Part shown: positions 1,637 through 33,845 of the stretch, one piece after another
Layout of the letters: each line of letters opens with the position of its first letter
How positions within the stretch are numbered: position 1 is the stretch's first letter
IMG/VR virus record: IMGVR_UViG_3300017912_002026
Span: 1-36,182 of that record
DNA: 36,182 bases
Direction: 5' to 3' (one strand)
DNA from: a virus
Lineage: Duplodnaviria > Caudoviricetes
Notes under the pieces: model-generated
The model's input: the letters and a program-made list of their open reading frames with translations, nothing else
Told to the model about the DNA's origin: nothing
Database searches by the model: none
Program-made: the position numbers and the translations under genes

Positions 1637-1875
1637 TGTCTCGCTCTACTCTCGACATTCCGCCAGTTCCTAAAAATTTAACAGAGTATCGATCTCGAAT
1701 ATGGACTGAGGTTCATATGTTAAGATCTGATTTTCATACAGTTGAAATACTAGAAGCTGAAGTTGGAGAGCTAAGAGAAGAGGTTCAGTCAGCAAAAACA
1801 TGGGCTAAGTCATTTGGGGTTTTCCTTAGCCTGTGTCTTGCTGTATTAGAAACTATTAGGAGACTCTTTCCCTAG
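1636..1875 (+). CDS. Coiled-coil protein with C-terminal TM helix (lysis-region membrane protein)
   Basis: C-terminal hydrophobic FGVFLSLCLAVL; coupled to the upstream stop. Confidence 0.6.
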   Translation: MSRSTLDIPPVPKNLTEYRSRIWTEVHMLRSDFHTVEILEAEVGELREEVQSAKTWAKSFGVFLSLCLAVLETIRRLFP

Positions 1876-1906
1876 TTTAAACGTGTATAAAATAAGAGAT
1901 TAATCA

Positions 1907-2023
1907 ATGTCATACGATATGAAAAAGAAAGGCTATTCATTACACCTTCCTGAGGACAAAAAGAAAATGAGGAAGATGATGTCTGAACAGCTTAAAAAGT
2001 ATAAAAAGAAAAAGAAAAAGTAA
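1907..2023 (+). CDS. Small Lys-rich peptide (38 aa, MSYDMKKKG...KKKKKK)
   Basis: Translated by hand; fills the gap before 2027, with AAGAG upstream. Confidence 0.5.
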   Translation: MSYDMKKKGYSLHLPEDKKKMRKMMSEQLKKYKKKKKK

Positions 2024-2026
2024 TAA

Positions 2027-2659: not shown

Positions 2660-3053
2660 GTTAGGCACTACATCATTAGCGCGTTTAAACGGTGTAGACC
2701 CACGATTAGTCGCCTTATGTCACGCAGTGGTCAAAGACTATGACATTACTGTAATTGAAGGATTAAGATCGCAGGAACGACAAAAGGAATTGTTTGACAA
2801 AGGCAGAACTAAAACAATGAACAGCAAACACTTGACTGGTAGGGCAGTAGATATTGCACCGTATCCAGTTGATTGGGAGAACTTAGCTAGGTTTGATTAT
2901 TTAGCAGGGGCAATGTTCAGTTATGCCAGCATGATGGGAATTAAGCTAAGGTGGGGTGGAGATTGGGATGGCAATAAAGAGTTTGGGATCAAAGGTGAAA
3001 CAAAAGGAACAGAAACCTTTAAAGACCTTGTACATTTTGAAATTTTAAACTAA
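2652..3053 (+). CDS. Endolysin, M15 family L-alanyl-D-glutamate peptidase
   Basis: EGLRSxERQ, SKHLTGRAVD, RWGGDW and DLVHFE Zn-binding motifs. ATG at 2652 preferred over TTG at 2637. Confidence 0.92.
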   Translation: MAKLGTTSLARLNGVDPRLVALCHAVVKDYDITVIEGLRSQERQKELFDKGRTKTMNSKHLTGRAVDIAPYPVDWENLARFDYLAGAMFSYASMMGIKLRWGGDWDGNKEFGIKGETKGTETFKDLVHFEILN

Positions 3054-3320: not shown

Positions 3321-4313
3321 TCACGCTCTTGCTAACTCCTTATTAATTACATTCTCAACTTGAGACATATCTATATGCGCATACCTTGCAACCTCAGTTT
3401 CAGTAGCGGTTATCTCGCCTACGCTCTTACGATCAAAGCCACCCTTAACTAACAAGGTAAACAATGTATGTCTAATAGAATGCAAGTCTACTCTTGGCGC
3501 GTTCTCTTTTTGATAGTCAGGGAATTCTCGTAAAACAATCTCTCTGAATCTTTTTACGCTAGTTTCTTGCATACCTTTTGATGGCATACAATTGTATATC
3601 TTATTGCCTAATTCTTTAAGCGCGTCAGTATAAGGTATTTTACGATAGGTCTTGCTTTTTTCCTGATACAAACCTGTCTTGACATGAGAGGGCTCTAAAT
3701 TGCCAGCTTGATTAGTTCTTAATCCAGTGTGTAGCATAACTGTCCACAGTGTAGCATCTTTCTCAGTAGGGGCAAGGTCGATCGCTCGTTGTACAACTCC
3801 TATAGGTAGGTCTTGTCTTGGTTTTGTGGCTCTTGTAGAAGGCATGTAGTTCTTAATAGCAAAAGGATTGTCTTCAATCATCTTTGTATTTACTGCCCAC
3901 TGAAACATTCTTTTAATTTCTGTCAAATGATTGTGCGCAGTTTTTGTTGTATACTTTTTTTCTCCTAGCAAATACTCTCTATACTGACAAGCATTTTCAT
4001 AAGAAAAACAACTAATATCCAAAGTGCCAAAAATCTGTTTAAACAACTTAAGTTTAGAGGTGTAGTACACTGGTCTTTTTTTGTTCTTTAGTTCTGCACT
4101 ATAAAACTTGCTGTAGACCTCATCTATTGTATACTCTTTTACAATCCTAGTTGCTTCTAGTCTTGATATGAGACCAGCTTTATATCTTTGAAGCCTTAAA
4201 ACAAATTCATTTTCAAGCTGTGTAGCAATTTTACAATCTTTAGTGCCTAACGATCTGCGCGGTGTTATAGAATCTTTATAATACCAGTATCCATTTTTAT
4301 GTTTAAACTTCAT
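3321..4313 (-). CDS. int: Tyrosine recombinase / phage integrase
   Basis: N-terminal arm-binding-like GYWYY...RRSLGTKD, core-binding helices, HTGLR, HSIRH and RY motifs. Start set at MKFKH (4313) because AAAAGGAG precedes it. Confidence 0.9.
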   Translation of the reverse strand: MKFKHKNGYWYYKDSITPRRSLGTKDCKIATQLENEFVLRLQRYKAGLISRLEATRIVKEYTIDEVYSKFYSAELKNKKRPVYYTSKLKLFKQIFGTLDISCFSYENACQYREYLLGEKKYTTKTAHNHLTEIKRMFQWAVNTKMIEDNPFAIKNYMPSTRATKPRQDLPIGVVQRAIDLAPTEKDATLWTVMLHTGLRTNQAGNLEPSHVKTGLYQEKSKTYRKIPYTDALKELGNKIYNCMPSKGMQETSVKRFREIVLREFPDYQKENAPRVDLHSIRHTLFTLLVKGGFDRKSVGEITATETEVARYAHIDMSQVENVINKELARA

Positions 4314-4345
4314 ATGACTCTCCTTTTTAGTATAAAATTTATTAC

Positions 4346-4374
4346 TTGCGTAATATTTGTAAGTGTGATAAGTT
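4346..4374 (+). promoter_or_regulatory. Sigma70-type promoter for the xis/replication operon
   Basis: TTGCGT-17 nt-TAAGTT with an extended -10 TG. Confidence 0.5.
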
Positions 4375-4413
4375 CTTTTGAACATATCAAAGGTATTCAA
4401 CGGTGTTAATGTA

Positions 4414-4614: not shown

Positions 4615-5413
4615 TTATTTAACCAATTACTTTCCTAACACAACTCGTCAGACAACCCCTTTGGGTCGTGCGTATAAAGACTCAAACGACGAGTCAGAGA
4701 ATCCTTTCCTTGCTTTATCTGTCACTACTATCCTCGGTCTCGTGCTCAGTAAAGGAGCATTTTTTGAGAAGTGGCTGAAGTCTACTGGAAGGCATGCTGA
4801 TGTTGTTAGGGATTATAAAGCTCATCTTGGTACAGTTGTTCATGTATTGTGTGAAGACTTGCTTAACCTCAGTGAGGTATCTCTCTCCACCATATCTGAG
4901 CGTATTCAACGATTCGTAACTGAGCAAGACTTGAACGAGGGCGGTGGCTATGACGCTGTCCAGTATACTGTTCAACTGTATCTTGAGAGCTTTATGGCTT
5001 TTTATGATGAAAATGAATTAGAACTATTTGAAGCAGAGCTACAAATGTTTAGCCCTGATGTGCCTTATGCAGGTACGGCAGATATAATAGGTCGTTTAAA
5101 CGGAAAAACTGCAATCATTGATATTAAGACTGGTATGGAGTCATCACAGCATGATTTACAATTGGTTGCTTACGGTGCATTGCACAATTATTTATTTCCT
5201 AAAAATAAGATACAAGAATTATACGTCCTTTACATAAAGAGCGGTTATAAAAGAAAGCCAACTTACAAACTATCTAAGGTTAGTTGGGATAGGTTGGCAG
5301 ACTGGAAAAGAATATTAAGGTACAGCTTAAGTCAGTATGGCAAGAAGGGAAAGTGGATTTTCCCTAAAAGATTTGAGCCTAGAGAAAATTTTACACTGAA
5401 AGGAGCTAAATAA
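4604..5413 (+). CDS. PD-(D/E)XK exonuclease (phage recombination nuclease)
   Basis: SVTTIL, GTVVH, YAGTADIIG...IIDIKTG and QLVAYG motifs. Confidence 0.85.
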   Translation: MPNNYLTNYFPNTTRQTTPLGRAYKDSNDESENPFLALSVTTILGLVLSKGAFFEKWLKSTGRHADVVRDYKAHLGTVVHVLCEDLLNLSEVSLSTISERIQRFVTEQDLNEGGGYDAVQYTVQLYLESFMAFYDENELELFEAELQMFSPDVPYAGTADIIGRLNGKTAIIDIKTGMESSQHDLQLVAYGALHNYLFPKNKIQELYVLYIKSGYKRKPTYKLSKVSWDRLADWKRILRYSLSQYGKKGKWIFPKRFEPRENFTLKGAK

Positions 5414-5840: not shown

Positions 5841-6019
5841 AATAGTATTGATATATTGAAGTTTAATTTCACACTTAACTTAAATCAAACAGTTTTGATC
5901 CCATTAGAAACTAGGTGTGTACCTATCTCCTTGATTTGGTTATATCTATATGGAGTTGCAACACCTATAACAGGGGGCAGGCATGCATGTAAACGCCCTC
6001 CTAGCCCCCTTTAAATTTT

Positions 6020-6496
6020 ATGAAAGTTAAATTAAAATTCTCAGAGTGTTTAAACGGTACAATGGTTGGAGCTCTCCGATACTACGAATCTTTATTTAAG
6101 GGTCGTACGACATCTTTCCCACGCTCATATATTGAGCAAGGACTATTGCATCATCAGCAGGGAGCTTTAGCAGAGCTTGCTTATTCTAAATTAAGTGATA
6201 GGTACTGGTCACAGCACGTCAATCGATTCCATGATGATGACCTCAGGGGAGTAGAGGTACGCTACAGCAACCGCAAAGATACAAAGGTACGCCCTGATGA
6301 TAATAACATATGGATAGTATCGATGGGAGGGGAGCTACCAGTATACGAATACAAGGGGTGCATATACAGTGAGGATGCTAAGCGCCCTGAATGGGAAAAA
6401 GATTTTGGGAACTGGGGCAAGCCAGCTTTCTTTGTGCCGAATGAACACTTGACTACCGACCTTCCACCTACCTACACAGAAGAGCCATTGCCATGA
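6020..6496 (+). CDS. Hypothetical protein, possible PD-(D/E)XK-fold nuclease
   Basis: GALAELA...DD...VEVRYS resembles the E...D...ExK motif. Confidence 0.5.
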   Translation: MKVKLKFSECLNGTMVGALRYYESLFKGRTTSFPRSYIEQGLLHHQQGALAELAYSKLSDRYWSQHVNRFHDDDLRGVEVRYSNRKDTKVRPDDNNIWIVSMGGELPVYEYKGCIYSEDAKRPEWEKDFGNWGKPAFFVPNEHLTTDLPPTYTEEPLP

Positions 6497-7155: not shown

Positions 7156-7756
7156 TGAAGAGTTACTGACTACGATGTTTGCTGTGCATGGCAAGAGACC
7201 AATGGATGCACAGTTCAATGAGTACCTGAAGATATTTGATAAGCTGGGATTTGAAAAGGCGGAAAGACTGTTTAAACATGTTAGGGATGAAGAAGACAGG
7301 TTCCCAACTATCAAGCAGTTATGGGGTATCATAAATAGTATGGGTCTGATCGAGAGAAAGCAAGAACAGTTAGAGTCTTATGATGACTGCTATTATTGTG
7401 GTGGGGTAGGGTATGTACCTAGAATGTTTAGCCCTAGACGTGACAAGACATTGATTAGTTATGTGACAAGAGTGTACGCCTGTCAGTGTAAAGCTGGTAT
7501 GAGCCTACCTAAAACATTGCCAAGATATTTTGCTGTATTTGATGCAGTTCAATTTGAACCTATGGATGGTCTGAATTACCCTCAGTTGGTTACTAGGAAA
7601 CAGATTGAACTTAATAACAAGTTACATGAGGAGAAAAATAATGGCGGAGATAACGAAACAAGAAGTAGAGAGCATACAAAAAAACTGGGAGCTCAAGAAC
7701 TTAGAGCAACATTTGAGAGAATTACAGGAACGAATATTGCGGATGAAAATAGATAA
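7139..7756 (+). CDS. Putative replication accessory / helicase-loader-like protein with Zn finger
   Basis: Follows the initiator; RFPTIKQL motif; CYYCGGVG...CQC. Confidence 0.55.
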   Translation: MSLSSNEELLTTMFAVHGKRPMDAQFNEYLKIFDKLGFEKAERLFKHVRDEEDRFPTIKQLWGIINSMGLIERKQEQLESYDDCYYCGGVGYVPRMFSPRRDKTLISYVTRVYACQCKAGMSLPKTLPRYFAVFDAVQFEPMDGLNYPQLVTRKQIELNNKLHEEKNNGGDNETRSREHTKKLGAQELRATFERITGTNIADENR

Positions 7757-8824: not shown

Positions 8825-9143
8825 ACCATTGGATGTAACAGAACATATGATGAAAGAGTATCCTGTTTTGATGAACAGTATTAAAAAACATTTCAATGGA
8901 TGCTTTTCGTTATTTGCTAAGAAACAAATGGATTATGGGTTAGGTAATATTGCTATGAATGGAGATAAAAAATTAGCATTGCTTGGAATCTTAATACGTT
9001 TAAACGACAAAGTTCAAAGAGCATTAAACATAGCTTTAAATGATCAAAATCCTAATAACGAGAGCTTAGAAGATACAGGAAGAGACATCACTAATTATGG
9101 AGCAATATTTAATACGGTACTAAAGGATGAGTGGAAGAAGTGA
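8799..9143 (+). CDS. Nucleotide-modification-associated domain 1 (Nmad1/DUF1599-like) protein
   Basis: KKQMDYG.NI...GILIRLNDKVQR...NESLEDT..DITNYG motif; ATG 8799 with AAGGA upstream. Confidence 0.75.
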   Translation: MTTKNVKNKPLDVTEHMMKEYPVLMNSIKKHFNGCFSLFAKKQMDYGLGNIAMNGDKKLALLGILIRLNDKVQRALNIALNDQNPNNESLEDTGRDITNYGAIFNTVLKDEWKK

Positions 9144-9435: not shown

Positions 9436-9504
9436 GTTTGGTTGGCGCTAAATAAACTTTTAAATAACCTGTGGTTGTACTGTTTAAACAAGGTAAGCGT
9501 AGAT

Positions 9505-9542: not shown

Positions 9543-9545
9543 AGT

Positions 9546-10116: not shown

Positions 10117-10118
10117 CG

Positions 10119-10283: not shown

Positions 10284-10284
10284 G

Positions 10285-10626
10285 TTACACCTCACTTTCT
10301 TTGTTTAAACGCGTTTTGTATAAACGCTCTAATCGATCGACTCTGTCAACAGCATACTTTCTTAATCCTGCGCAAAAGATTAATGTTCTCTTATAATCTA
10401 GATTAGCTAGGTAATAGTCTAGGTTGTCTCTGAAGTCCTTGAACTTGCCTGATACATATTCTCTATACTTAGTATTGCTATTATTGAAGTCAGGATAAAA
10501 GTATTCGTAAAACGTCCAGCCATCCATCTCGTTGTGCGCATTTAAAAGTGTTCGTATGTTTGCTAAAATATCCTCATCAGATTGAGGTGCTATTTTTTTT
10601 GCATATTTTTTATCTATTTCTAACAT
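10285..10626 (-). CDS. Hypothetical protein ending KESEV
   Basis: ATG at 10626 preceded by GGAG. Confidence 0.65.
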   Translation of the reverse strand: MLEIDKKYAKKIAPQSDEDILANIRTLLNAHNEMDGWTFYEYFYPDFNNSNTKYREYVSGKFKDFRDNLDYYLANLDYKRTLIFCAGLRKYAVDRVDRLERLYKTRLNKESEV

Positions 10627-10934: not shown

Positions 10935-11237
10935 CTAACCTTTTACCTGTCTACTCATTATAACTGCTTGCTCAGCGCAAAAGCTCTGAATGCTCATAGC
11001 CAGTTTGTAGAACTCAGGTTTGAGGTTGACTCTATCGTTAGGTGTCTTTTTAACAACTGTTTTAGTCTTGTTAACACAGTGCTTAGGCATGACTGTTTTC
11101 ATACCGTCCTCTGTGGTGTTTAAACAGATATTATCTAGCACCTCCATAAAGCACCTCTCTAGGCTCTCAATTGATTTAGCACTCAATGATAAGCCTTTGG
11201 CATTGATATGCTTTTTTACCTTGCTTTTCTGAATCAT
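10935..11237 (-). CDS. Bacterial-type histone-fold protein with C-terminal helical extension
   Basis: SKVKKHINAKG-LSLSAKSIESL...EDGMKTVM matches the Bd0055-type histone pattern as I recall it; GAGGTG RBS. Confidence 0.75.
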   Translation of the reverse strand: MIQKSKVKKHINAKGLSLSAKSIESLERCFMEVLDNICLNTTEDGMKTVMPKHCVNKTKTVVKKTPNDRVNLKPEFYKLAMSIQSFCAEQAVIMSRQVKG

Positions 11238-11335
11238 AGCGCACCTCTCAAAAAGGCTAGGATAAAGTGTCCGCCAAAATAAAGTATGGCGAACACTATA
11301 AACCAGTTAGTGAGCTTGTCGATGTATTTATCCAT
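11234..11335 (-). CDS. Small single-TM peptide (33 aa, MDKYIDKLTNWFIVFAILYFGGHFILAFLRGAL)
   Basis: Translated by hand; GAGG RBS; ATGA coupling to the histone gene. Confidence 0.6.
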   Translation of the reverse strand: MDKYIDKLTNWFIVFAILYFGGHFILAFLRGAL

Positions 11336-12083
11336 TTGCGACCTCTTTTCTGAGCTTTTCCTGTTCATGTAGATAAACTCTACGTTCCAAGTGTCTAATT
11401 ATGATGCCGTTGACTTCAGGGTCATCAGAGAACATTGGCTGGCGACACTCAGGACAAACTGCACTTCCATATTCTACAATGTTTTTTCTACTTGTCCTGA
11501 CAATGTAGTCATGGTCTACAGCTTGACAGTTAAGCTTAAGCATCCTAGTGGTCTGAACTCTGCGCTTAACAGGCAACCATTTAGTATGAGGAATCTTACC
11601 TACCTTTTTAACCATTTTGTCGATCTTCTTGACGAGCTCTTTAGACTCTGTAGTTGCAGTCATTTTACCCTCTAATCCTACAGCTAACGCTAGGGTTTTG
11701 AATTTACCTCTGTGACCCTCGGCTGGTGTCAGGTAATGAATTAGCTCATGGATAAGAACACCGACTATCTTTGTGGTGTCAGTCAAGTCAGGAGTAATAA
11801 GTATCTGAGTCTTCATTTTCTCCTTGTCAGATATGCTGTAGCCAGCCCAGCATTGACCTATAATATTGCTGGTCTTTTTAGCTCTGTAGAGCTTGCCATT
11901 GACAACCTGACCATTGATACGTTTATTAGGTGGAAATGCCATGCTAAACTGTAGGTCTTTAATATTGAATTTCTTCTTAATACCTAGCTTGTTAAGCAAT
12001 GGTTGTTTAAACAGGTCTTTGTTGACTACCTGAGCCATCTCAAAGAGCCACTCTTCACGAGAATGTATCTTAGGTTTATTCAC
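11328..12083 (-). CDS. SprT-like zinc metallopeptidase with C-terminal Zn ribbon
   Basis: VLIHELIH...GHRGKF (HExxH...H); C-terminal C..H...CPEC; GTG start with GGAGGTG RBS. Confidence 0.8.
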   Translation of the reverse strand: MNKPKIHSREEWLFEMAQVVNKDLFKQPLLNKLGIKKKFNIKDLQFSMAFPPNKRINGQVVNGKLYRAKKTSNIIGQCWAGYSISDKEKMKTQILITPDLTDTTKIVGVLIHELIHYLTPAEGHRGKFKTLALAVGLEGKMTATTESKELVKKIDKMVKKVGKIPHTKWLPVKRRVQTTRMLKLNCQAVDHDYIVRTSRKNIVEYGSAVCPECRQPMFSDDPEVNGIIIRHLERRVYLHEQEKLRKEVANG

Positions 12084-12398: not shown

Positions 12399-12428
12399 AT
12401 CTTAATCACATTAATCACAATTGTGCAA
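12399..12428 (-). promoter_or_regulatory. Leftward early promoter with tandem TGTGATTAA repeats in the spacer
   Basis: TTGCAC-18 nt-TAAGAT; AT-rich upstream region containing the ATGTTTAAACAT palindrome. Confidence 0.55.
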
Positions 12429-12783
12429 GTAAATAATGTTTAAACATCTATTTATTTTTAATCTGTCGTCGTGAACAAGATAAACGATTGTATTAGTTTT
12501 GAGTTGGTAATGTGACTATTATTGACCCAATTCAGGCACGCATTTTATGTTTCAGAATTCGTTTTGACATATAATAGGTGTCGACAGCACTAAATCAGAG
12601 GGTGTCAGGGTTAGTTACCCTCCCTTTATCGACGAGAAAGTAGTCGATTAAGTACAGTTTAAGTCCTTTTCGTGGGCGTGTATTGATTTAATTGTGTTTG
12701 GCAGGGTAGGGGAGCCCCCTCCCTTCCGATCGGTACCTTGCGCATGTGCTGGTGGGTAGTTATTAATTGACACAGGGAATATT

Positions 12784-15087: not shown

Positions 15088-16832
15088 AATACAAACCAAC
15101 ACCACAAGACAAAGAAACTATCAAGCGCACAGAAAATATGTTTCAGATTGCTAGAAAAGCACGATCTGAAGTAACCAAGCTTTGGCGAGAAGCCGAAGGT
15201 CTGTATCAGGGCAACCACTGGGAAGGCATGAACATGCCCCAGTTTAAAAATCAGATAACAATAGATATGATTGCATCAGCTATTGATACTATGATTCCTA
15301 TATTGTCATCTAGACCCCCTAAGATCGATATCCTGAGCGTAACTGGCGACGATAAGGGGATGAATGTAGCTGACACATTACAAGCCTTTATGGACGAATT
15401 ATGGCAGATAAGGGATATGCAAAACCTTATACCTGAATTCCTACTTGATTACTTAGTGTATGGTACTGGTATACTTAAAACACAGTGGAACAATGTAGAC
15501 GATATGCCTGATTGTGATATTATTGATCCATTTAATTTTTATGTCAACCCTTCCGCAACCAAATTAGAAAATGCAGAGTGGGTGTGTCTAGCATCTGCAA
15601 TGCCTATATATGAAATAAAAGAACGTTTTGATAACGGTCAGTTTGTCAAGCCAATGAGCGACCTTGAGAAATATTCATCAACTAAGATAGGTGTATCAAA
15701 CTTTGGAGACGATAAAATCCAAGTAACAGATACAAAAGGACAAGAGACTAATTATTACGAGAGCTATGGTAAAGCTATGGAAGATTTAGAGCCACGCGCC
15801 TTAGTAATAGAGTGTTATATGAGAGACCCCTCAAAAGAATATGTAACTACTGACGACGGCAAAGAGAAACAACAAATGAAATACCCTAATGGTATGCGCC
15901 AAGTCATTGTCAGTAATGGAGTATTGCTTTATGATGGAAAAACAAAATACCCATTCTTTGACAAAAAGAATCACTGTCCGCACCCTTTTCCTTTTGTTAC
16001 GATTAAAAATACTGGTTCTCCTCACTCGTTTTGGGGAAAGCCTGAACCAAAGAGATTAAAGTCTATTAACCTTGCTATGGATCGAATCGCAAGTCAGGTC
16101 TCAGATAATATAGCCCTAACAGCTTCTCCGAACTGGATTGTAGATGAAACGGCTGGGGTTGAAAATCAAATAACTAATAAACCAGCACAAATTATTAGGA
16201 AGAAGGGAGCAGGACAAGTATCTATGCAGTCTCCTCCTTCTATGCCTAGTTATGTATTTAATTTTTATCAACTGCTTGGCGACGTATTCGAGACAGTAAG
16301 TGGAGTCAATAAAGCAACTCAAGGCAAAGAAGCCAGTAACGTAACAAGTGGAGTCCAAGCTCAGATATATCGCCAAGCCAGCACTACTAAGATAGATTTT
16401 AAATCTCGTACCTTAGATCAAGCAATTTCTGTGCTAGGAACTATGTGGGTTGCTATGTTTAAACACTTAGGCAACCAAGTTAAGAGAGTCAACTTTGTTG
16501 GTAACGATGGAGTAACTGAACCTAGAGATTTAATTGGTGTGATGTTTAAAGAGATTGATCTAATGGTCAGGGCAAAAGCTGGCTCAATGTTACCTGAAAA
16601 TAGAATGTTTGTTGAAAACAAAATATTACAACTTGCCCAACTTGGCATCGTGACAGACCCTGAATATATTGTCGAAAACATGGAAATGCCGTCGAAAGAA
16701 AGATTGTTAGCTAAGATAAGAGAAGAGAAAGAACAGCAGGGTCAACCTCCAGCACCTGAGGAGCTTGGTAATAATGAGGATGAAATATTTGAAACATTGA
16801 GGAATAATCCTACCCTAATAGACCAAGTGTAA
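15081..16832 (+). CDS. Portal protein (podovirus/P22-like)
   Basis: Size and position; YGTGILK, DPFNFYVNP, FPFV...SFWG and ETVSGV...QG...SGV motifs. Confidence 0.9.
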   Translation: MLKYKPTPQDKETIKRTENMFQIARKARSEVTKLWREAEGLYQGNHWEGMNMPQFKNQITIDMIASAIDTMIPILSSRPPKIDILSVTGDDKGMNVADTLQAFMDELWQIRDMQNLIPEFLLDYLVYGTGILKTQWNNVDDMPDCDIIDPFNFYVNPSATKLENAEWVCLASAMPIYEIKERFDNGQFVKPMSDLEKYSSTKIGVSNFGDDKIQVTDTKGQETNYYESYGKAMEDLEPRALVIECYMRDPSKEYVTTDDGKEKQQMKYPNGMRQVIVSNGVLLYDGKTKYPFFDKKNHCPHPFPFVTIKNTGSPHSFWGKPEPKRLKSINLAMDRIASQVSDNIALTASPNWIVDETAGVENQITNKPAQIIRKKGAGQVSMQSPPSMPSYVFNFYQLLGDVFETVSGVNKATQGKEASNVTSGVQAQIYRQASTTKIDFKSRTLDQAISVLGTMWVAMFKHLGNQVKRVNFVGNDGVTEPRDLIGVMFKEIDLMVRAKAGSMLPENRMFVENKILQLAQLGIVTDPEYIVENMEMPSKERLLAKIREEKEQQGQPPAPEELGNNEDEIFETLRNNPTLIDQV

Positions 16833-19086: not shown

Positions 19087-19113
19087 GTGGGGTGTTTAAA
19101 CGCACCCCACTTT
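19087..19113 (+). terminator. Terminator-like hairpin after the capsid genes
   Basis: GTGGGGTG...CACCCCAC-TTT, with GTTTAAAC at its apex. Confidence 0.65.
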
Positions 19114-20753: not shown

Positions 20754-22804
20754 TCATAGAAATACCAATATTTGATGGAGGTCTCGTTACAAATGTTGAC
20801 GCAGAGGATATTCCATTAAATGCTAGTTCTGATACAGAAAACTTCGACATAGATGTACAAGGTAAAATAAAAAAACGCAAAGGCTTAGAGTCTAAGGCAA
20901 CTTTAAACGGCACACACCTAACACAGCTATTTTATTGGGTTGATTCAAATTTAACAGGCGGAGCGAATTGGATAGGTTATGAAGATCAAAGCAATGAGAT
21001 AGTAAAATTCAATAAAGATTTTTCTAACAAAACAGTTTTAAAAACCTTTTCTTCTAATCCTCCTGAAGATATTAAGATTATCCCAATGGCAAACAGTTTA
21101 CGTTTTGCTAATGGTCACAATCAAGATGTAGGATTTTTACAATTTATTGACAGGGGATTCTTTTTTAGCGCATATACGTTTAATGCCCTTAAATATGACA
21201 GTGCTAGCCCAGCATACCCCTCGACATGGGATTTAGCTGTAGAGGGTACAGAATCAGGCGCATTAGCCACAGGAACTTATTATTATAAAGTAACAGCCCT
21301 GTTTGACGGCAATCAAGAAGCGCAATTACAAGATCAGTTTATAAAACAAGCTGTTAGTGGTAACGATGATTCTATAAAGTTTTCATTAACAGTTGACACT
21401 GATGACTATAATCCAAGAATTACTGGCGCTAATGTATACAGGCATTTTAGCGCTGATGACACTCTTGTGCCTACCTACAGATTAGTAAAGTCTATAAACC
21501 TAGCCACAAAATCTAATTCTACAGATAAAGAGTCAGGTAACTCTACTTCTCGTATTGGCAATTTTGTTTATTTCCCTGAGGGTGGTATTAGTCAAGCAGT
21601 AGCCAATGCTTTTTCATGGGCTAATGCTGAGTCTAATCCGCAAGTAAGTATAACTATAGGTGGTGTAGAGACTGTGATAAAGACTGATTCATCTACTGAT
21701 GCTAACTTTTTTACAGATACATTAATATTTTTAGGGCAAAACATCGGTGCTGGGCATACTGGATGGGGCGCATCTCTCTCTTTAAATGCATCAAGACAAT
21801 CAGGGGGTGGCGAACAAACCAACAATTTTGCTTTAACGCCTAAGGGGTACTATGGTAGAAATGTTGTATATGATACTAGAACAAGCAATAATTGGGATTT
21901 TTCTATTGGCGAAAAAAATGGATGGATACAAAAAATTGGGTCTCAATATTTGACAGTTACAAATAGTTTAGCTAGGGCAATACAACTTAATGCTGACAGT
22001 ACCAGTCTTGGCTCTAATGTTACTATAGGCGAGCTTACTAATGGATATTATTTTGAAGCATTATCAGGAAATCAATTTAAAATTAACATTATAGATAATG
22101 GATTGACTAATGACAGGACACACCCATTAACTACTACAAAAAATAAAGTTAATTATGAGCATGGAGCTTTTGTAAACGGCAGATTCTTTGGTGGTAACGT
22201 TACTCTTGATCCTGACGATGAAGCTGAAAAGCATGAAGATTTTATTATCTTTAGCTTGATTAACCAGCCTGACATACTACCTGTATCAAACTTTATACAA
22301 TTGAAGGATGCGCAAGGCGGAATTATAAAAGCTATGCGCAGTTTAAACGACAACTTAATTATATTTATGGAGAGAGGTGTGTTTCAGTTATACGCACCTT
22401 CCGCTAACCCACAAAATTACAGCCTTAGAGAAAGCGACATAAACGTAGGATGTATTGCAAGCAATAGTATAGTAGAAGCTGGTCAATATTTATTTTTTGC
22501 AGGGTCAGACAATATCTACATGACTGGAGCAAACATGAGTAGTGTACCAGTTTCTACTGCTGTAAAGGATGTGTATACATCTTCATCGAATCTTGATAAG
22601 ACAATAGGCATATATGACCCTTTAAAAAATAGAATTTTATTTAGATTTGGAAGCGATGGAACTAAGCTATATGCATTAGATTTTTTGAAGATCCAAAATG
22701 GGCAAGAGGTTTGGAACAAATTAAGCTTTGCATCGGCAAAATCAGTAGACATCCTATCTATTGATAACGACCTAAAAATATATACAACACACAATGAAAG
22801 TTAA
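20750..22804 (+). CDS. Tail nozzle / stabilisation protein (gp10 or tubular-B-like), apparently lacking its C-terminal part
   Basis: N-terminal FDGGL.T...D.....S....N.D....G...KRKG; propeller motifs NGRFF, IIFS...PD, LIIFME, VGCIA..SI, YDP...R. Confidence 0.7.
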   Translation: MIIEIPIFDGGLVTNVDAEDIPLNASSDTENFDIDVQGKIKKRKGLESKATLNGTHLTQLFYWVDSNLTGGANWIGYEDQSNEIVKFNKDFSNKTVLKTFSSNPPEDIKIIPMANSLRFANGHNQDVGFLQFIDRGFFFSAYTFNALKYDSASPAYPSTWDLAVEGTESGALATGTYYYKVTALFDGNQEAQLQDQFIKQAVSGNDDSIKFSLTVDTDDYNPRITGANVYRHFSADDTLVPTYRLVKSINLATKSNSTDKESGNSTSRIGNFVYFPEGGISQAVANAFSWANAESNPQVSITIGGVETVIKTDSSTDANFFTDTLIFLGQNIGAGHTGWGASLSLNASRQSGGGEQTNNFALTPKGYYGRNVVYDTRTSNNWDFSIGEKNGWIQKIGSQYLTVTNSLARAIQLNADSTSLGSNVTIGELTNGYYFEALSGNQFKINIIDNGLTNDRTHPLTTTKNKVNYEHGAFVNGRFFGGNVTLDPDDEAEKHEDFIIFSLINQPDILPVSNFIQLKDAQGGIIKAMRSLNDNLIIFMERGVFQLYAPSANPQNYSLRESDINVGCIASNSIVEAGQYLFFAGSDNIYMTGANMSSVPVSTAVKDVYTSSSNLDKTIGIYDPLKNRILFRFGSDGTKLYALDFLKIQNGQEVWNKLSFASAKSVDILSIDNDLKIYTTHNES

Positions 22805-22806
22805 GC

Positions 22807-23349
22807 ATGAAAGAAAAATTTAGTATAAGCGGTCAATGGTCTGCTGAAGTTATCAGGGCAGACGGCAGTGTAGAAACGTTTAAACAGCCTAATGCTATTG
22901 AAAATGATTTTAAAGAAACTTTAGTTGACGCTATGGTTACGTCACAAAATACTTCTTTCTTGTTCGACAGTAGTGTTTTGCATACTAACGATGGTAGCGG
23001 TCAAGGTTCAAATTCTAACACGCTAACAGTTAATGCGACAAACGGTAGCGGTATACAGCTTAATACTGGTGGAAGTGAGTATGTTGGTATGCAGACTACT
23101 ATTGAAAATGCAAATAACGCACCTGTAGCTATTACTAGCTCAGGAAGTACAATAGGATACAAAGCGCAGTTTAAAGGGGTAGTTAGGGTAGTAGCTAGCT
23201 ATACTATTACAGCAATTTTTCTAAAACGTAAAAAAACGACAAATACTAATCAATGGGAAACTGATGTAGCTACTGGAACTGGATGGAATTCATTAACGAT
23301 AAATAATGGTGATCAGCTAACTATAAACTGGGAGATTAGCATACAATGA
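22807..23349 (+). CDS. Tail-associated beta-rich protein
   Basis: G....EVIRADG...N.I and C-terminal GDQLTINWEIS. Confidence 0.55.
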   Translation: MKEKFSISGQWSAEVIRADGSVETFKQPNAIENDFKETLVDAMVTSQNTSFLFDSSVLHTNDGSGQGSNSNTLTVNATNGSGIQLNTGGSEYVGMQTTIENANNAPVAITSSGSTIGYKAQFKGVVRVVASYTITAIFLKRKKTTNTNQWETDVATGTGWNSLTINNGDQLTINWEISIQ

Positions 23350-25441: not shown

Positions 25442-25800
25442 TGGCTAATTCAACAATTTATCACTTAGGCGGTGCTGATGGGGAATCCATTTCTACTAAA
25501 CGTAGAACTGGTTGGATACCTCTTACTGATATGTCACGCAATACTACTATACGTCGTTTAAACGCACGTTATCTTAGCCCTGAAACAGTAACCGCCAAGA
25601 TTTATGCCAATGGAGACGATAGCAGTGCTATATGGCAATCTCCAAGTGGTCAAATGAGCGCAAACAATAGCTCAGGAGATAAATACAAAAGCCTAGCAGT
25701 AGGCAGAAGAGCTAACAGTATTCTTGTAGAAATATCTACAAGCGCATCTTCAAACACTGCATTGGAAATAAGCAAACTAGAGGTAGAAGTAGATGGCTAA
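25441..25800 (+). CDS. Standalone nozzle C-terminal-like domain protein
   Basis: IY.L.G....I....RTGWI......N..IRR.N..Y.S shared with the preceding gene's C-terminus. Confidence 0.65.
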   Translation: MANSTIYHLGGADGESISTKRRTGWIPLTDMSRNTTIRRLNARYLSPETVTAKIYANGDDSSAIWQSPSGQMSANNSSGDKYKSLAVGRRANSILVEISTSASSNTALEISKLEVEVDG

Positions 25801-27556: not shown

Positions 27557-30500
27557 TGTCAACCATATCTAAGCCTAAAAAAGATTATAATTTTATATAT
27601 GACGCTGTAAATTTATTTGAGCAAGGAGATAGAGCGTTTAAACACAACCAATTTGGCGCTCACGTATGGACTCCTGAACTACAAGAACAATTTGGTGCTA
27701 GACGTGGCGAACCACTTCCTGACAACCCTAGACTGTTTACTGCATATTACGATACACCTGAGATCGGTAGCGAAGCATCTAAATATATCATTGATAAAAT
27801 TTGGGAAAAAAACGGTGGTAATGAATTAGGCTTTGCTACACAATACACAGGGCTTCCTGAAAATCATCCTACTGTTATAAACTATGCTGGAGAGATACGC
27901 AGAAGAAAGACACAAAAAGATAAAGAAAATGCAAAACGCAGAGCTCTAAATGTTTTAGATATAGAAAAAAACAAAGCAGAGCTAGTAGAAGAATTCCCTG
28001 AGTATGAATCAAAAATAAGCCAGTCTTTAAAAGATGGAAAGATGAGCTTGCAAGACCTCAAGACATCCTTTAAAAAATCTCGTATGGGTGTTAAATATGG
28101 GGTCACTACCAACCAAGAGCAGGACACTGCTGTAAGAGATAATTTAACAGCAGGCTTTAAGGATGTTGCATCAGACTTTGCTAAAATGGCTGATTATGTA
28201 TTATCTAGCGATGATTTTATAGAAAGACTACCAGCCACAGATGCAACCAAGTCTATGCTAAGAGGTAGCGATAAAAGTGTGGGCAGTATGGTTTCTCCTA
28301 TCCTCAAAAAGTTTGCTGGGCAAATGGATGCTGAAGTTGCAAAAATGGATAAAGAGTATGCAAGAGACCTAAACAAAGAATTTGAGTTTAGCGATTTAGG
28401 CGATCCTAATTTTTATAAAACAAAAATTGCTAGAACACTGCCAGCAACGTTATCACTAATGGCTCCAGCTATGGGTGTCGCTAGAACAGTTGGCGGATTA
28501 AAAGGAATTGTAGCTGGTGTAATGGCAAGCAGACCATTAGAAAGTGGCATGGAAGCTTTAGGTTTGTACGAAAGCTTAATAGAGCAAGGTGTTGATCAAG
28601 ACACTGCTAGTGATGAAGCATCGCAATTATTTAATAAAAACATGGCATTATCTGTATCTGATGGTGCGCAACTAGGGTTAGCGCTAACAGGTGTACCTAC
28701 TGGAATGCGCAATGCTTTAGGTAGGTATGTGTCAACAATTGGCGGTGTTGGTTTAGGTGCATTTACAGAAGGCGCTGAAGAGGTAGTGCAAAACTTTTTT
28801 ATAGAGCAAGGACAGGCATCAGCCTTAGGTAATCCTGAACCTGAAATAATGGATGCACTAGCCTTGTCTACTCCCCAGCAAAAAGAAGCTTTTGCAATAG
28901 GCGCATTAATGGGAGCAGGTTTTAATGTAGCAGGTCAAACATTGACCAAGCAACAGGTAGACAATATTATACAAGAAGAGCAAGAAAAGTACATAAGTCT
29001 TCAACAGGCAAAAGAATTAGAAGACATTGCTCCAATAACAGTAGAACAAGAATTTTTCCAAGATCGTGTAAACAACCTAAAGAAGCATGGAGATGCCATA
29101 GACATAGGTTTTGTGGATTCTGAGGTCAGACAAGTATTTACCGCAGATCAATTACTTGAGTATGGATATTTTAACTTAGAAGAATTTCAACAAGCAAAAC
29201 TAAAAGAAGGAGATGAAGGATATGTCAACGATGGACAAGATCGATATGAACTCGCAATCCCAGCAACTAACTACCAAACAGGGGATAGCGATGCCCAAAG
29301 GGTCTTACTCAGCCGTTCAGCCACTACAGCAGATTTCCTTGAAGATACAGCAGAAGCTGTCCTCCGAAGACTACAATCAACTAATCCGCAACTTGCGAAT
29401 GATATCTTCGGATGGGTAGATGCAGTTGAAAGAGTTGCCGAAGAACTAGACGTGCAACTACCGTATGGAGGGGCAGAGCTTTTTAGTAAATCTTTTGTCT
29501 ACAATAGCTTAGGCTATGCAGATCAAGGGGCTCTCCCTGACTTTACGGTTATGCCTGATGCTTTGCAGGATGCATTTGTGCAAGAATTAGAATTAAATGA
29601 TGGAAGCAATCTGCTAGACAGCATGACTATCTTAGGGCAACAAGCAGAGCCAACACAAGCTGTTGACTACACACCAATCGAAATTGATACACAATCTCCA
29701 AACGAAATGTTTGCACTAGGCGAAAGAGGGCAAGGCGGTATCTTTGTTATGGGGGGAGATGCTATTGCTAGAGATGCCAAAGGTAGACGATCAATAGAAG
29801 GGATTCGATACCCTGAGAAGTTTAGCGGTTGGCAACTTAGCGAAGCTGGTGCCACAGCTTTACAAAATTATGCAGAAGCAGGTAACAACGTCATAGCTAT
29901 TTATCAATACAAAAAACCGAGTTCGAGCGAATCTAATCCAAGATTTAAAGAAGTGTATGAGCGCGAGAAAAAGAAAAACGCTCGTAGAGTAAAGAAAAAT
30001 CGTAAAACTTTAATTCAGTTACGAAAAGAAGTTGAACGCATGGTTTCTGAGCCTGATATAAATTTAAATAGAGGTAAAATACTTTATGTTGCTGAGTTCG
30101 ATAAGGTTTTAAGGGGTGATGAAAGAACAGAAAAACATAGCACCTATCCAGCGCAAATAGTTTTTAAAAATGTTAAAGAATTGCCTAGACCACTAGATAT
30201 ACAAGACTTAACCGATTCCATAGACCCTACTGTTTCAAATAACGCTAGAACATTTATTAGTTCTAGAGATTTGCGCGCAACCAGTTCTAATTTGTATTTA
30301 CTGCCTTCTGAGTCTCCAATGGTACAGGAAATAAGAAATTTTGCTGAAGGAGAACAGTCAATATTAGATCAACAGCAAGAGCCTAGCAGGGTAATGTCAA
30401 GCTTTAGAATAGAAGGAGAACAAGACGTTCAAGGGGTATTCGACTCTATTAACTCTGAAAGAGAATTAGCTTACATGGGAACCATGTCTGACATAGCTAA

Positions 30501-33468
30501 AGATTTAAATTTGCAAGGCAGACCTGCTCAAGCTGGGGCTGTTACAAATGAATACGGCAAAGAAAATGGCATGGTCTTTACTATTGAAAACCCTAACATT
30601 AATGCTTTGGATTTATATATAGCATATGCAGGTTTGCTAGGTAATCAGTATAGTATTTTACATTTTAATCCTAACACAGGAAACGACAGCATACATATTA
30701 ATGATGAAAGTTTTGAAGACATCAGTCAAGTACGTGAGCTTTCTGAAATGTACGCCAGTAAAGACATAGACCATACAGTAGAAATTAGAGGTTCACAAGC
30801 ACAATTTATATTCATTGACCCTAATAGTGAAAACATTGTAACTTTAAAAGACAAAGGAGTTATTGATGACAATACAAGAACGATTAAAGGCAGTATCGAG
30901 TTTAGAGAAAGCCAAGATAGTAAGTTTCAGGACGCATCCACACCTGAGAAAGAGCGTCGGAAACTCGCTAGAGACTACTGGCAGTCAGAAATTGACAGGC
31001 TCCAAGAAGCAGGATACACCTCAGAAGCAGGAGAATCCGCATCTAGTGATCGCAAGCTTAAATCAAGGCTAGCAAAAGGTCAATCAGGATTTAGCGTCAG
31101 GGTATCAGACACTGATGCATCAGAATTTTTTAATCAAAAAATATCTCGCAAACAAAAGCGCAGAATAAGAAGAGCTCAACGAGAAAGCAACCCTAGACAA
31201 CTTAGGGATTATTATCGTACGTGGAGCTCTCAAATGCGCAGGGCTTTTGACAAACTTATGAACCCTATTGTCAAGCTCCAAAAACGTGAGCTCGATATAA
31301 AGCGCGAGTATATGCAAGAAGCTAAGCCTTTTTTAAAAGTGTTGTCTACTGCGTTTAAACGTAGTAACAGAAAATTAAAGCCTAACAAAGAGATGCAAAG
31401 CGCTTATGCAAATTTGTCACTTGCTTTGAAGAATGGTAACGAAACAGATATTGTTGACATATTAACTAATGTAGAGTTTTTCAAAAGGCGAAATGCGTTA
31501 AACAAATGGAATCAGTTTAGACGCGCTCACGAAAAACTGCATAAAAAAGCATTCAAATCAGGCTTAAAATTAAAGTATATAGATACCCACTTTCCTAGAG
31601 TGATGGTAAATCATTCTGCTTACCTCGATGATACATTCGGCATATTGCCTGATCAGCAAAGAAGTAGACTGCAAGAGATATTAGATAAGACTGCTGAAGA
31701 AGAAGGCAGACCTTTAATTGATGAAGAAAAAGCTGAGATAGCTAACAGATACATGAAAGACATGAAGGGTGTAACTAACTCACAAAAATCATACAATTTA
31801 AAAAGCAGAAAAATTGAAACCCTAAGACCTGAGCAACTAAAGTATTACGCGCATCCACACGAAGCAATGGGTATGTACATTAACAGTATGGCAGGCATTA
31901 TAGCTCAAAGTGAATTTATGGGTAGAAGTAAAGACATATATAAAATACGATTAACCGATAAGACTGTTAGGGTGGCTGGAAGATACGTTAGGCAGTACGG
32001 TATTTTTGATCAAAGAATAAAAGAATTTGTTAGGGGCGAGAATGGCGAGGTTATTACAAGGGGCTCTAAAGATAACCCTCAGCTTATAAAAGAAATGGAA
32101 GCTCGCATAGAGCAGGACGATTATGAAATGGGCGATTTAACAGACATGCCAATAGAAGACCAAATTGGTATGATGATGATTAGATTAGAGAACGAAGCTG
32201 GTGTTATACCGCGTGGTAAAGAAGAGCGCGTTAGAAACCTTTTAAAAAATTACTTTGAAATGAGACAGTCAGGACAGGCAGTTTATTACATTAAAAACAT
32301 TGGTTACATGACTAGCATGGGTTCTCCTTCTAGTGCAATAACACAGTTAGCTGATTTAGGTGGCGCATATTACAGAAGTGTTGAAGGAGACTATGCTAAC
32401 CCTATGAACGTTGCAAGGTTTTTCAAAGCTTTTACAAAAGCATTAACAAATAAATCTACTATAGATTTGCAAAAGCTAGGGGTTGATGACACCTTATTGC
32501 AAGAGCTTACAGGTCAAGGCTCTGCACTAAATAAACTATTCAAACTTACTGGTCTTAGGTTTATGGATCGAGTAGGTAAAGAAACATATGTTAATAGTGT
32601 TATATCTAGATATCAAAAACAAGCCAAGACTTTTTTAAAAAATAGACAAACTAAAAACGATGCAAAATTTCAAGCACGACTAGAGGATAAATTTGAACAG
32701 GCTGAGCTACCACAAGTAATTAAGGATTTAGCTGATGGCAAGAATACACAATTAGTGCAATTGTTAGCATATAGCGAATTACTTGATGTACAGCCTGTAG
32801 CAAAATCTGAGGTTCCTGTAAGGTATTTAGATATGCCAAACGGTCGCGTATTTTATATGTTGAAAACATTTATGCTTAAAAGAATTGACTTCTTCGGCAA
32901 AGAAAGACAAATAGTGTTTAAACAGGCTAAGGTACTAGAGCGTCAGGGAAAGATAAAAGAAGCTAAACAACTTCGCATGTCGCGAGGATATGCACCAGTT
33001 ATACAGCTTGCTATTATTTTAACATTAGCTGAAGCAGGGGCTGATACAATTAAGGACGTTATGTTTGGCAGAAAAACTACTTTAAGTGATTTGGTTATTT
33101 CTAATATACTAAAACTCATTCTTATAAGCAGGTACACGTTTTATAATTTTGCGCACGATCCGCTATATGGATTATTTAAAGCCATTGCTCCACCTTCAGA
33201 TGTAGTTACAGACCCTATGAGAGATATTGTTTATTTTGGCAGGCAGGTCGTTAAAAATCGTGGAGACTTCGAAAAGGCTATAGACAAGGCAAATGAAAGA
33301 GGTTATAGGACTCCTAAGAATATACCATGGATAGGGAAGTTTTTGCACTGGAGAAAAACTAATTGGCTGTCGGATGATCCTGATCGCCAGCTTGGATATG
33401 GTCAAAAACAGATAAAGAAAAGAGAAAAAAAGAAGAAGAAATCGCGAAGCACAAATAGACGATTCTAA
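27556..33468 (+). CDS. Large internal virion / ejection protein (1970 aa), possible N-terminal lysozyme-like domain
   Basis: Size and position; Ala/Gly-rich segment with EGAEE..Q motif; N-terminal HNQFG...YDTPEIG. Confidence 0.65.
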   Translation: MSTISKPKKDYNFIYDAVNLFEQGDRAFKHNQFGAHVWTPELQEQFGARRGEPLPDNPRLFTAYYDTPEIGSEASKYIIDKIWEKNGGNELGFATQYTGLPENHPTVINYAGEIRRRKTQKDKENAKRRALNVLDIEKNKAELVEEFPEYESKISQSLKDGKMSLQDLKTSFKKSRMGVKYGVTTNQEQDTAVRDNLTAGFKDVASDFAKMADYVLSSDDFIERLPATDATKSMLRGSDKSVGSMVSPILKKFAGQMDAEVAKMDKEYARDLNKEFEFSDLGDPNFYKTKIARTLPATLSLMAPAMGVARTVGGLKGIVAGVMASRPLESGMEALGLYESLIEQGVDQDTASDEASQLFNKNMALSVSDGAQLGLALTGVPTGMRNALGRYVSTIGGVGLGAFTEGAEEVVQNFFIEQGQASALGNPEPEIMDALALSTPQQKEAFAIGALMGAGFNVAGQTLTKQQVDNIIQEEQEKYISLQQAKELEDIAPITVEQEFFQDRVNNLKKHGDAIDIGFVDSEVRQVFTADQLLEYGYFNLEEFQQAKLKEGDEGYVNDGQDRYELAIPATNYQTGDSDAQRVLLSRSATTADFLEDTAEAVLRRLQSTNPQLANDIFGWVDAVERVAEELDVQLPYGGAELFSKSFVYNSLGYADQGALPDFTVMPDALQDAFVQELELNDGSNLLDSMTILGQQAEPTQAVDYTPIEIDTQSPNEMFALGERGQGGIFVMGGDAIARDAKGRRSIEGIRYPEKFSGWQLSEAGATALQNYAEAGNNVIAIYQYKKPSSSESNPRFKEVYEREKKKNARRVKKNRKTLIQLRKEVERMVSEPDINLNRGKILYVAEFDKVLRGDERTEKHSTYPAQIVFKNVKELPRPLDIQDLTDSIDPTVSNNARTFISSRDLRATSSNLYLLPSESPMVQEIRNFAEGEQSILDQQQEPSRVMSSFRIEGEQDVQGVFDSINSERELAYMGTMSDIAKDLNLQGRPAQAGAVTNEYGKENGMVFTIENPNINALDLYIAYAGLLGNQYSILHFNPNTGNDSIHINDESFEDISQVRELSEMYASKDIDHTVEIRGSQAQFIFIDPNSENIVTLKDKGVIDDNTRTIKGSIEFRESQDSKFQDASTPEKERRKLARDYWQSEIDRLQEAGYTSEAGESASSDRKLKSRLAKGQSGFSVRVSDTDASEFFNQKISRKQKRRIRRAQRESNPRQLRDYYRTWSSQMRRAFDKLMNPIVKLQKRELDIKREYMQEAKPFLKVLSTAFKRSNRKLKPNKEMQSAYANLSLALKNGNETDIVDILTNVEFFKRRNALNKWNQFRRAHEKLHKKAFKSGLKLKYIDTHFPRVMVNHSAYLDDTFGILPDQQRSRLQEILDKTAEEEGRPLIDEEKAEIANRYMKDMKGVTNSQKSYNLKSRKIETLRPEQLKYYAHPHEAMGMYINSMAGIIAQSEFMGRSKDIYKIRLTDKTVRVAGRYVRQYGIFDQRIKEFVRGENGEVITRGSKDNPQLIKEMEARIEQDDYEMGDLTDMPIEDQIGMMMIRLENEAGVIPRGKEERVRNLLKNYFEMRQSGQAVYYIKNIGYMTSMGSPSSAITQLADLGGAYYRSVEGDYANPMNVARFFKAFTKALTNKSTIDLQKLGVDDTLLQELTGQGSALNKLFKLTGLRFMDRVGKETYVNSVISRYQKQAKTFLKNRQTKNDAKFQARLEDKFEQAELPQVIKDLADGKNTQLVQLLAYSELLDVQPVAKSEVPVRYLDMPNGRVFYMLKTFMLKRIDFFGKERQIVFKQAKVLERQGKIKEAKQLRMSRGYAPVIQLAIILTLAEAGADTIKDVMFGRKTTLSDLVISNILKLILISRYTFYNFAHDPLYGLFKAIAPPSDVVTDPMRDIVYFGRQVVKNRGDFEKAIDKANERGYRTPKNIPWIGKFLHWRKTNWLSDDPDRQLGYGQKQIKKREKKKKKSRSTNRRF

Positions 33469-33506
33469 TAGTTTAAACATAGTAAAAGTGAAATATTCAT
33501 AACATT

Positions 33507-33845
33507 ATGGCAGGTTTAACAGGTAAAACTCCAGCTACTACTTTTAAAGATTTGTTGACTGTGCATTCAGAAAGTGAATCTAATCAAGGCTTAGAAGCAA
33601 CAGTAAAGCCCATAGAAGATGGAGATGGGCTTCAATCTGCTTTGCAAATAAGTACAGTAGACGTTAATGTGAATGGGCATGGCTCTAGCACAGGTCTTTT
33701 ATTAAATGGGGTTAGGGTTACTACTGATGCGTCAGAGTTAAACAACCTGTCAGGTAGAAACTTTGGGGATAGCAGTGATGTAGTCACGTTAAACGCTACG
33801 CAGAGTTTAAACAATAAAACAGTTGATGGGGGTACATTTACATAA
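33507..33845 (+). CDS. Tail fibre-associated protein
   Basis: LTGKT.A.T.KDLL, DGDG..SAL.IST, A.ELN.L and Q.L.NKT.DGG.F motifs. Confidence 0.6.
   Translation: MAGLTGKTPATTFKDLLTVHSESESNQGLEATVKPIEDGDGLQSALQISTVDVNVNGHGSSTGLLLNGVRVTTDASELNNLSGRNFGDSSDVVTLNATQSLNNKTVDGGTFT

Follow-up and report, generated by a model that had tools for sequence, protein, structure and literature searches.

What keeps one eight-letter palindrome, GTTTAAAC, at 23 places in a single phage genome, and which protein reads it? The question is raised by the virus record IMGVR_UViG_3300017912_002026 (Duplodnaviria; Caudoviricetes), a complete record of 36,182 bases from a podovirus-like phage, which was analysed over its whole length and is called the window here. 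The explanation favoured on balance is that the copies are operators of the phage's own SprT-like protein, which would be a dimeric repressor acting genome-wide. Its gene (251 amino acids; 11328..12083, minus strand) was missed in the preliminary description of this DNA. It encodes a protease-fold domain followed by a C-terminal zinc ribbon (residues 170-222; 11418..11576, minus strand), the predicted DNA-binding arm. Binding of the word by this protein is very probable from comparative sequence evidence, and repression of transcription by it is rather probable.

An excess of one word at synonymous positions

GTTTAAAC is the top-ranked 8-mer of the window. All 23 start positions given in the preliminary description match exactly, and its expectation of about one copy agrees with dinucleotide shuffles, which gave a mean of 1.32 and at most 4 copies (n = 100). 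Markov models predict 1.3 to 1.6 copies at orders 2 to 3 and about 6 at order 5, and one-mismatch variants occur at about chance level. Eighteen sites lie in genes, nine in each of two frames. When synonymous codons were shuffled within genes, a mean of 2.7 in-gene copies was left (standard deviation 1.4, maximum 7, n = 2000), so that the excess proposed earlier holds against Markov and codon-aware nulls alike. The codons of the window permit the word at 28 in-gene places, of which 18 are occupied. The other five sites are non-genic, in a window with 4.6% non-coding DNA. The excess is real and is selected at synonymous positions.

The word extends to YGTTTAAACR, with C or T as the 5' flank in 41 of 46 half-sites. 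A purine is preferred five bases out (533 of 628 half-sites, from 314 distinct sites in related loci). A cluster of 13 copies between 1875 and 12438, with gaps of 264-1728 bases, was confirmed, as was the absence of the word from the distal tail fibre, where a 4252-base gap covers the tail-fibre end. Taken over the whole window, the copies are not evenly spaced (p 0.17). The early half, a region picked post hoc, is evenly spaced (coefficient of variation 0.44, p 0.003).

A SprT-like protein as probable reader

Relatives of the window phage were collected by a terminase scan (31 loci) and a capsid scan (80 loci). Among those with 77-82% terminase identity, GTTTAAAC counts are bimodal, being high in G008 (21), G009 (14), G004 (11), G007 (10), and G005 (10), and low in G002 (0), G013 (2), G014 (3), and G011 (3). 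The sprT gene is present in G007, G008, and G009 and absent from G002, G013, and G014. At greater distance, G021 has sprT and 11 sites, and G022 and G023 have no sprT and 1 and 0 sites, respectively. All 11 more distant records without a SprT match in the locus have at most two sites; the wider gene search covered G022 and G023 of these. The fraction of codon-permitted places in use is 0.34-0.64 in genomes with sprT and 0.00-0.12 in G002, G011, G014, G022, and G023. As to conservation in related phages, which the preliminary description proposed to test, individual sites are kept in several relatives and the counts range from 0 to 21. A comparison of four runs gave 40/1045 differences, too few for a site-level test.

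The same association is found in unrelated phages. Matches to the SprT-like protein were found in 159 of 50,697 phage records; 18 of the 159, picked for spread, were examined. Cultured phages with an intact ribbon carry GTTTAAAC (Venkman 34, R5C 17, Pan1 16, Arya 7, Bas97 6, and Persinger 4 copies) or the one-base variant GTGTAAAC (JackieB 41, Yang 20, and Floof 16), and the intact-ribbon AZ phages Emotion and Maureen have 17 sites each. With a degenerate ribbon, Eden, FP1, Epa43, and Psa21 have 0-1 sites and Armstrong, Rona, and Quenya have none. Alignment searches found 80 viral loci centred on sprT. After removal of four clade members, 64 of the remaining 76 (duplicates included) were enriched for GTTTAAAC or GTGTAAAC, with 553 sites seen and 33.6 expected. 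None of 62 control loci was enriched (26 seen, 36.7 expected); these were distant capsid or terminase relatives, unmatched for habitat and G+C content, with L060 (which has sprT) and the close relatives L094 and L103 excluded. In the pooled sprT loci, the word and its overlaps make up the top 12 8-mers. A scan of viral contigs with a single sprT protein as the query returned zero loci.

A scan with the ribbon alone, which overlaps the first one, found enrichment in 47 of 50 distinct protease-bearing loci and in all six loci without the HExxH motif. One of these six is cut by a contig end. The other five (L280, L284, L300, L311, and L316) encode full-length pseudo-proteases that have lost HExxH and retain the fold motifs, the ribbon, and the word. 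L311 has 31 sites in 15.9 kb, mostly downstream of the gene, and sites in operator position are found in three of the five copies. Because copies that have lost HExxH retain both ribbon and word, the core role of the SprT-like protein is probably DNA binding and not cutting. No standalone ribbon protein was demonstrated, the two short cases (L314 and L336) starting at contig ends. The gene is also carried by 73 plasmid records, three of which were read; they have 18 sites (0.4 expected), 5 sites (0.03 expected), and 0 sites (L264, with an altered motif). Together, these comparisons are strong evidence that the SprT-like protein is, in all likelihood, the reader of the word.

On the window protein, the Pfam SprT-like family matches with an E value of 5.6e-4 and 20.1 bits, below its curated cut-off of 25.6, and phrog_6361 matches with an E value of 9e-27. 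The HExxH zinc-protease motif (H112, E113, and H116; 11736..11750, minus strand) and the third ligand H124 do not vary among the 73 aligned SprT-like homologues, and the ribbon residues Q177, R180, K183, C186, R196, and C210 are conserved in at least 90% of homologues. The AlphaFold2 model has a predicted local distance difference test score (pLDDT) of 90 and a minimal zincin fold with HExxH and a third histidine, as in SprT/SPRTN-like proteins. The best structural match is human SPRTN (6mdx; Z 7.8, root-mean-square deviation 3.5 over 98 residues within residues 4-162) and the second is Wss1 (Z 6.8), middling Z scores being common in this range. Foldseek found no match to the full model at E 0.001, and an Atlas search with the protein gave only leads under 0.9. 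Folded by itself, the ribbon reaches a pLDDT of 58; sequence searches with it gave no Pfam match above cut-off and no relative of solved structure. No helix-turn-helix (HTH) family or serine autoprotease domain was matched on the protein.

A homodimer of the SprT-like protein was predicted with a score of 0.71, against 0.13 for the best control; the mark applied is passed by 20 of 30 homodimers of solved structure and by 1 of 23 monomers. The runs agree in at least 67% of their contacts, with pLDDT of at least 81. The predicted interface comprises residues 4-14, 45-65, 79-98, and 166-172, that is, the RExWL helix and neighbouring strands, and leaves the ribbons free. Its centre is the start of the N-terminal RExWL helix (residues 4-14; 12042..12074, minus strand), whose residues R9, W12, and L13 are conserved in 68-72 of the 73 aligned rows. 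The RExWL motif is also retained in the pseudo-proteases. The protein is thus predicted to pair via its protease-fold domain and not via the ribbon.

A recognition code was also tried, in which Gly versus Thr/Ser after the ribbon Gln would choose GTGTAAAC or GTTTAAAC. It was rejected, as all three residue classes occur with both words. The choice of word tracks genome G+C content or host group and could be assigned to no ribbon residue. Next to sprT, two relatives have a gene (L060:1084-1551 and L016:596-1213) that is putatively peptide-deformylase-like, as judged by its motif.

Site positions, mechanism and competing explanations

The window phage encodes a tyrosine integrase, an Xis-like protein, and replication functions; its early operon runs leftward, and a late operon carries the structural genes. 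None of its 52 proteins matched a CI-like repressor, despite the integrase and Xis (window 3321-12780); the integrase itself scores below the Pfam cut-off. The likely early leftward promoter of the sprT operon lies at 12399..12428 on the minus strand, with its -35 box at 12428-12423, and TTGACA or TTGACT stands at the homologous position in G002, G007, G011, and G013. Promoter calls were made by eye and by comparison with relatives; a consensus scan, which performed at chance level (39 vs 42), did not list 12399-12428. Every one of the 14 genomes with an intact ribbon has a site near the conserved start motif of sprT, no more than 200 bases before it or 100 bases after it. The chance of such a site is 0.03-0.24 per genome, and several of the genomes share ancestry. 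The site abuts the -10 box in Yang, Emotion, and Maureen, lies just past it in Bas97, Arya, and Persinger, and falls in the spacer in JackieB. By this by-eye reading, the sites at sprT promoters occupy operator positions. In Emotion, Maureen, and Yang, a further GTGTAAAC site stands between sprT and the gene that follows (serine integrase side), close to the end of sprT.

In the window, site 13 (12438..12445) is 9 bases upstream of the early promoter -35 box, and site 12 (12005..12012) is in the 5' part of sprT, 71 bases in, and is present at the homologous place (kept, in what follows) in all four sprT-bearing relatives. At lower coordinates, site 1 (1875..1882) overlaps a stop codon, site 2 (2683..2690) is within the endolysin gene and is kept in G008 and G004, site 3 (4037..4044) is within the integrase gene, and site 4 (4301..4308) is in the first integrase codons, 5 bases past the ATG. 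Site 5 (5094..5101) is within an exonuclease gene and kept in G008. Among open reading frames (ORFs), ORF 6020 holds site 6 (6048..6055; kept in G007), ORF 7139 site 7 (7270..7277; kept in G008 and G007), ORF 8712 site 8 (8998..9005), and ORF 10285 site 10 (10303..10310). Site 9 (9482..9489) is intergenic, with converging operons on either side, and site 11 (11118..11125) is within the histone-like gene and kept in G008, G009, and G004.

In the late half, site 14 (16457..16464), in the portal gene, is kept in G008, G009, G007, G004, and G011 and lost in G002, G014, and G021. Site 15 (19094..19101) is intergenic and inside a hairpin. Site 16 (22341..22348) is within tail gene 20750, site 17 (22878..22885) within ORF 22807 and kept in G009, and site 18 (25556..25563) within ORF 25441 and kept in G008, G007, and G014. 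The gene for a protein of 1970 amino acids contains sites 19 (27636..27643), 20 (31353..31360), and 21 (32916..32923; kept in G008), and site 22 (33471..33478) follows directly behind its stop. Site 23 (33805..33812) is within ORF 33507. The placements named in the preliminary description can be seen in the sequence at the integrase start, the 19094 hairpin, the stop codons at 1875 and 33471, and the early promoter at 12438; the site at the integrase start is not kept in the five relatives that were compared. Over five genomes, permitted places are used more often in early genes (35 of 46) than elsewhere (32 of 81).

A mechanism can be proposed for the favoured explanation. A dimer of the SprT-like protein, paired through the protease-fold domain, would grip the word with its zinc ribbons and repress its own promoter in a negative feedback loop. 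The scattered sites may be road-block or loading sites that damp transcription over the whole genome, and most strongly in the early genes. By analogy with SPRTN, the protease domain may provide an off-switch through DNA-triggered self-cleavage. Such a role of the protease as a switch is less likely than not, and catalysis is dispensable in one subfamily.

A number of observations weigh against this reading. G004 and G005, which are one species, have no sprT or ribbon match and yet 11 and 10 sites. The ribbon was not matched elsewhere in the G004 record, which is without about a third of the genome, and the sprT slot is filled by an ArdC-like gene (ArdcN and MPTase; L121:15195-16184) that is also carried by the word-poor G003 and G013. 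Three in-gene sites are common to G004 and the window at homologous codons, which is consistent with descent from a sprT-bearing ancestor, but site decay, sought as a raised one-mismatch density, was not seen in G004. Despite an altered ribbon motif, L196 and L234 contain 15 and 6 sites, the gene on plasmid L264 is accompanied by no site, and 12 of the 76 sprT loci (9 of them shorter than 7 kb) are not enriched. The loci also share kinship, and the p-values overstate accordingly. With regard to position, the in-gene site at +47 falls on a conserved Phe codon, so that the protein sequence itself in part provides the opportunity for it. The 650 bases before terS are free of sites in G007 and G009, and 18 of the 23 window sites are in genes, whereas stoperators are intergenic. 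An orientation bias of the asymmetric variant reaches p < 0.05 in one of five actinophages, Emotion (15/17), and is absent in JackieB (19/41). A TGTnA repeat between the -35 and -10 boxes of the early promoter is kept in nine of nine genomes, with or without sprT, and is a candidate operator for the ribbon-helix-helix (RHH)-like 9546 protein. Venkman, JackieB, Pan1, R5C, and G009 have no integrase match (at limited sensitivity), two plasmids carry the gene and word pair, and the integrase-bearing G002, G013, and G014 lack both gene and word. The integrase-less phages and plasmids with the pair argue that the protein is not an obligatory immunity repressor. Since integrase-bearing relatives do without the system, the early promoters of G007 and G009 are siteless, and the other repeat is shared by all relatives, the system is at most an added layer in the window clade.

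The sites could instead be docking points at which the protein coats the DNA of the element and acts against host defence proteins, silencing proteins, or DNA-protein crosslinks by blocking or cutting them, with the promoter sites serving autoregulation only. We consider this unlikely, and several facts speak for it. An ArdC-like anti-restriction gene occupies the sprT slot in G003, G004, and G013, the anti-restriction role of ArdC is described as independent of protease activity (PMC7213743), and cleavage of host proteins has been suggested for SprT-like and ArdC-like peptidases of phages (PMC7824862, PMC5512222). The gene-word pair occurs in integrase-less phages and plasmids, spacing is even in JackieB, Yang, Floof, Pan1, R5C, and Bas97 (p < 0.0002 to 0.03) as in the post hoc early half of the window, and the invariant HExxH (73/73) goes with nearest folds in SPRTN and Wss1. 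Protease-dead copies, however, retain dense sites. Late genes are under-covered and gaps of 11-15 kb occur in G009 and Venkman, which would be odd for a shield, and spacing is uneven in the whole window, G008, G009, and Venkman. There was no PADLOC match, and a relaxed avoidance of restriction sites, sought in sprT-bearing relatives, was not seen, avoidance being no weaker there. CCGG and GGCC are fully absent from the window, and relatives avoid differing 4- and 6-base palindromes, a pattern that suggests hosts with many restriction systems. In G011, the first early gene was likewise identified by eye as ArdC-like.

It is very improbable that the word is a host trait, that is, a HIP1-like word arising from a methyltransferase of the host or one to which a host protein binds, as the preliminary description had also considered. 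In favour of this, G004 retains sites without sprT, and the GTTTAAAC or GTGTAAAC choice follows G+C content or host group. However, the word is common to phages of Methylophilales, Pseudanabaena, Dinoroseobacter, E. coli, Enterobacter, and Pseudomonas. In E. coli K-12, YGTTTAAACR occurs 21 times and the reversed control 37 times, and 6 sites are found in the 41 kb of Bas97, a phage of this host. A Flavobacteriales bin, a putative host only, which contains the contig of one close relative found in the terminase scan, has 55 copies against 43 for the control, 8 of the 55 being on the phage contig. M. foliorum hosts the word-rich Floof as well as the word-free EB phages Eden, Armstrong, Rona, and Quenya, restriction-site avoidance is similar in relatives with 0 or 21 sites, and no methyltransferase or catalytic motif was found among the 52 window proteins. 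The excess is a phage trait and not a host trait, as judged from these comparisons. The earlier idea of a binding site for a phage protein, with its stoperator analogy, stands; its named candidates, the histone-like 10935, RHH-like 9546, and Xis-like 4414 proteins (the first two labels come from that description), fall with their occurrence in word-poor relatives, and it is very improbable that any of them is the reader. Each of the six word-rich clade members, G004 included, carries the histone-like gene. It is also in the word-poor G013 and G003, and its co-occurrence with the word fails outside the clade, with 1 of 152 SprT-centred viral loci (the clade member G021) and 0 of 13 cultured phages. 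RHH-like 9546 is in all eight relatives with its region, including G002 (0 sites). G002, G013, and G014, which have 0-3 sites, encode Xis, and G009, with 14 sites, does not. The histone-fold-like protein itself (window 10935-11237) is confined to the clade, and Atlas leads to archaeal-type histone clusters, all under the bar, point weakly to its nature.

The window phage was matched in seawater metagenomes, of which the two best-matching datasets may be the source of the record; none of the listed datasets containing it is an RNA dataset. Tail-fibre-like open frames occur at both ends (window 35308-36182 and 1-1218). Complete relatives are 40-42 kb, and the window record may be circularly cut or without part of the fibre region.

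Relation to known systems and meaning

The system resembles several known ones in part. Like the stoperators of Cluster A phages, the array has more than 20 copies of one short word, some at promoters, and a single phage repressor, here a candidate. The L5 sites are described as asymmetric 13-mers, intergenic, oriented with transcription, and read by a monomeric HTH repressor (PMC9283540). Here, the copy number (23) agrees; asymmetry, intergenic position, and an HTH reader are not found. Unlike stoperators, the word is a 10-base palindrome or its one-base variant and lies mostly in genes, and the reader would be a protein that has a protease fold and a zinc ribbon, is predicted to dimerise, and occurs in many host groups and on plasmids. 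Repressors of the lambda CI type have an autoprotease switch. They share with the SprT-like protein a DNA-binding domain joined to a pairing domain, a palindromic operator, and autoregulation, here predicted; the CI-type dimer architecture is treated in PMC9283540. They differ in that the SprT-like protein has a zinc ribbon in place of an HTH, a zinc-metalloprotease fold in place of a serine autoprotease, the reverse domain order, and tens of scattered sites in place of clustered operators. Among the hallmarks of CI and LexA, the HTH and serine autoprotease were not found, the dimer is only predicted, and sites are present at the protein's own promoter.

SPRTN is switched by DNA, cleaves itself, and clears crosslinked proteins (PMC5128726). 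SPRTN and Wss1 have the same protease fold, HExxH, and a zinc-binding domain behind it. The parts of PMC5128726 covered here report no sequence word for SPRTN, whereas here a fixed word co-evolves with the protein and catalysis can be lost. HIP1 is likewise an excess 8-base palindrome in coding DNA (codon-aware excess here 18 vs 2.7). It is chromosomal and tied to methyltransferases (PMC4390886), unlike the present word, whose carriers are mobile elements and whose associated gene does not encode a methyltransferase. No literature tying the word to the SprT-like protein was found in a search that lay outside subscription papers and bioRxiv supplements.

Cultured actinophages offer a setting for this proposal. 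The temperate AZ phage Powerpuff forms immune lysogens for which no repressor has been identified (PMC8758107). EH phages are turbid and EB phages lytic (PMC7302621). A preprint on AZ phages names the SprT-like protein as a candidate and describes a copy with a 33-residue N-terminal truncation in Liebe, whose plaques are clear, while those of Maureen are turbid (10.1101/2025.05.26.655371). We infer from the dimer model that the stretch lost in Liebe holds the predicted dimer helix. The main text of that preprint predicts a mammalian-protease-like function, names no binding site, and contains the word 0 times (10.1101/2025.05.26.655371). The SprT-like protein possibly fits as the repressor of temperate AZ and EH actinophages, with the ribbon motif and the word lost in the lytic EB sisters.

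In its widest form, and here only tentatively, the proposal is of a new regulator class on mobile elements, a sequence-specific dimeric repressor with a SPRTN fold, access to its whole genome by way of the one word, RecA-free self-cleavage, and a role as the AZ/EH immunity repressor, or else of a word-tethered protease that clears host proteins. A function and a DNA target are thereby proposed for a protein that is widespread in phages and plasmids and whose only annotation is that of a protease. The question of the AZ/EH repressor becomes testable in cultured phages, which now offer a candidate and its operator word, together with a natural mutant and a prediction of the dimer interface. The word may be used as a marker of the system in metagenomes, and a single gene can, on this proposal, reshape synonymous codons genome-wide.

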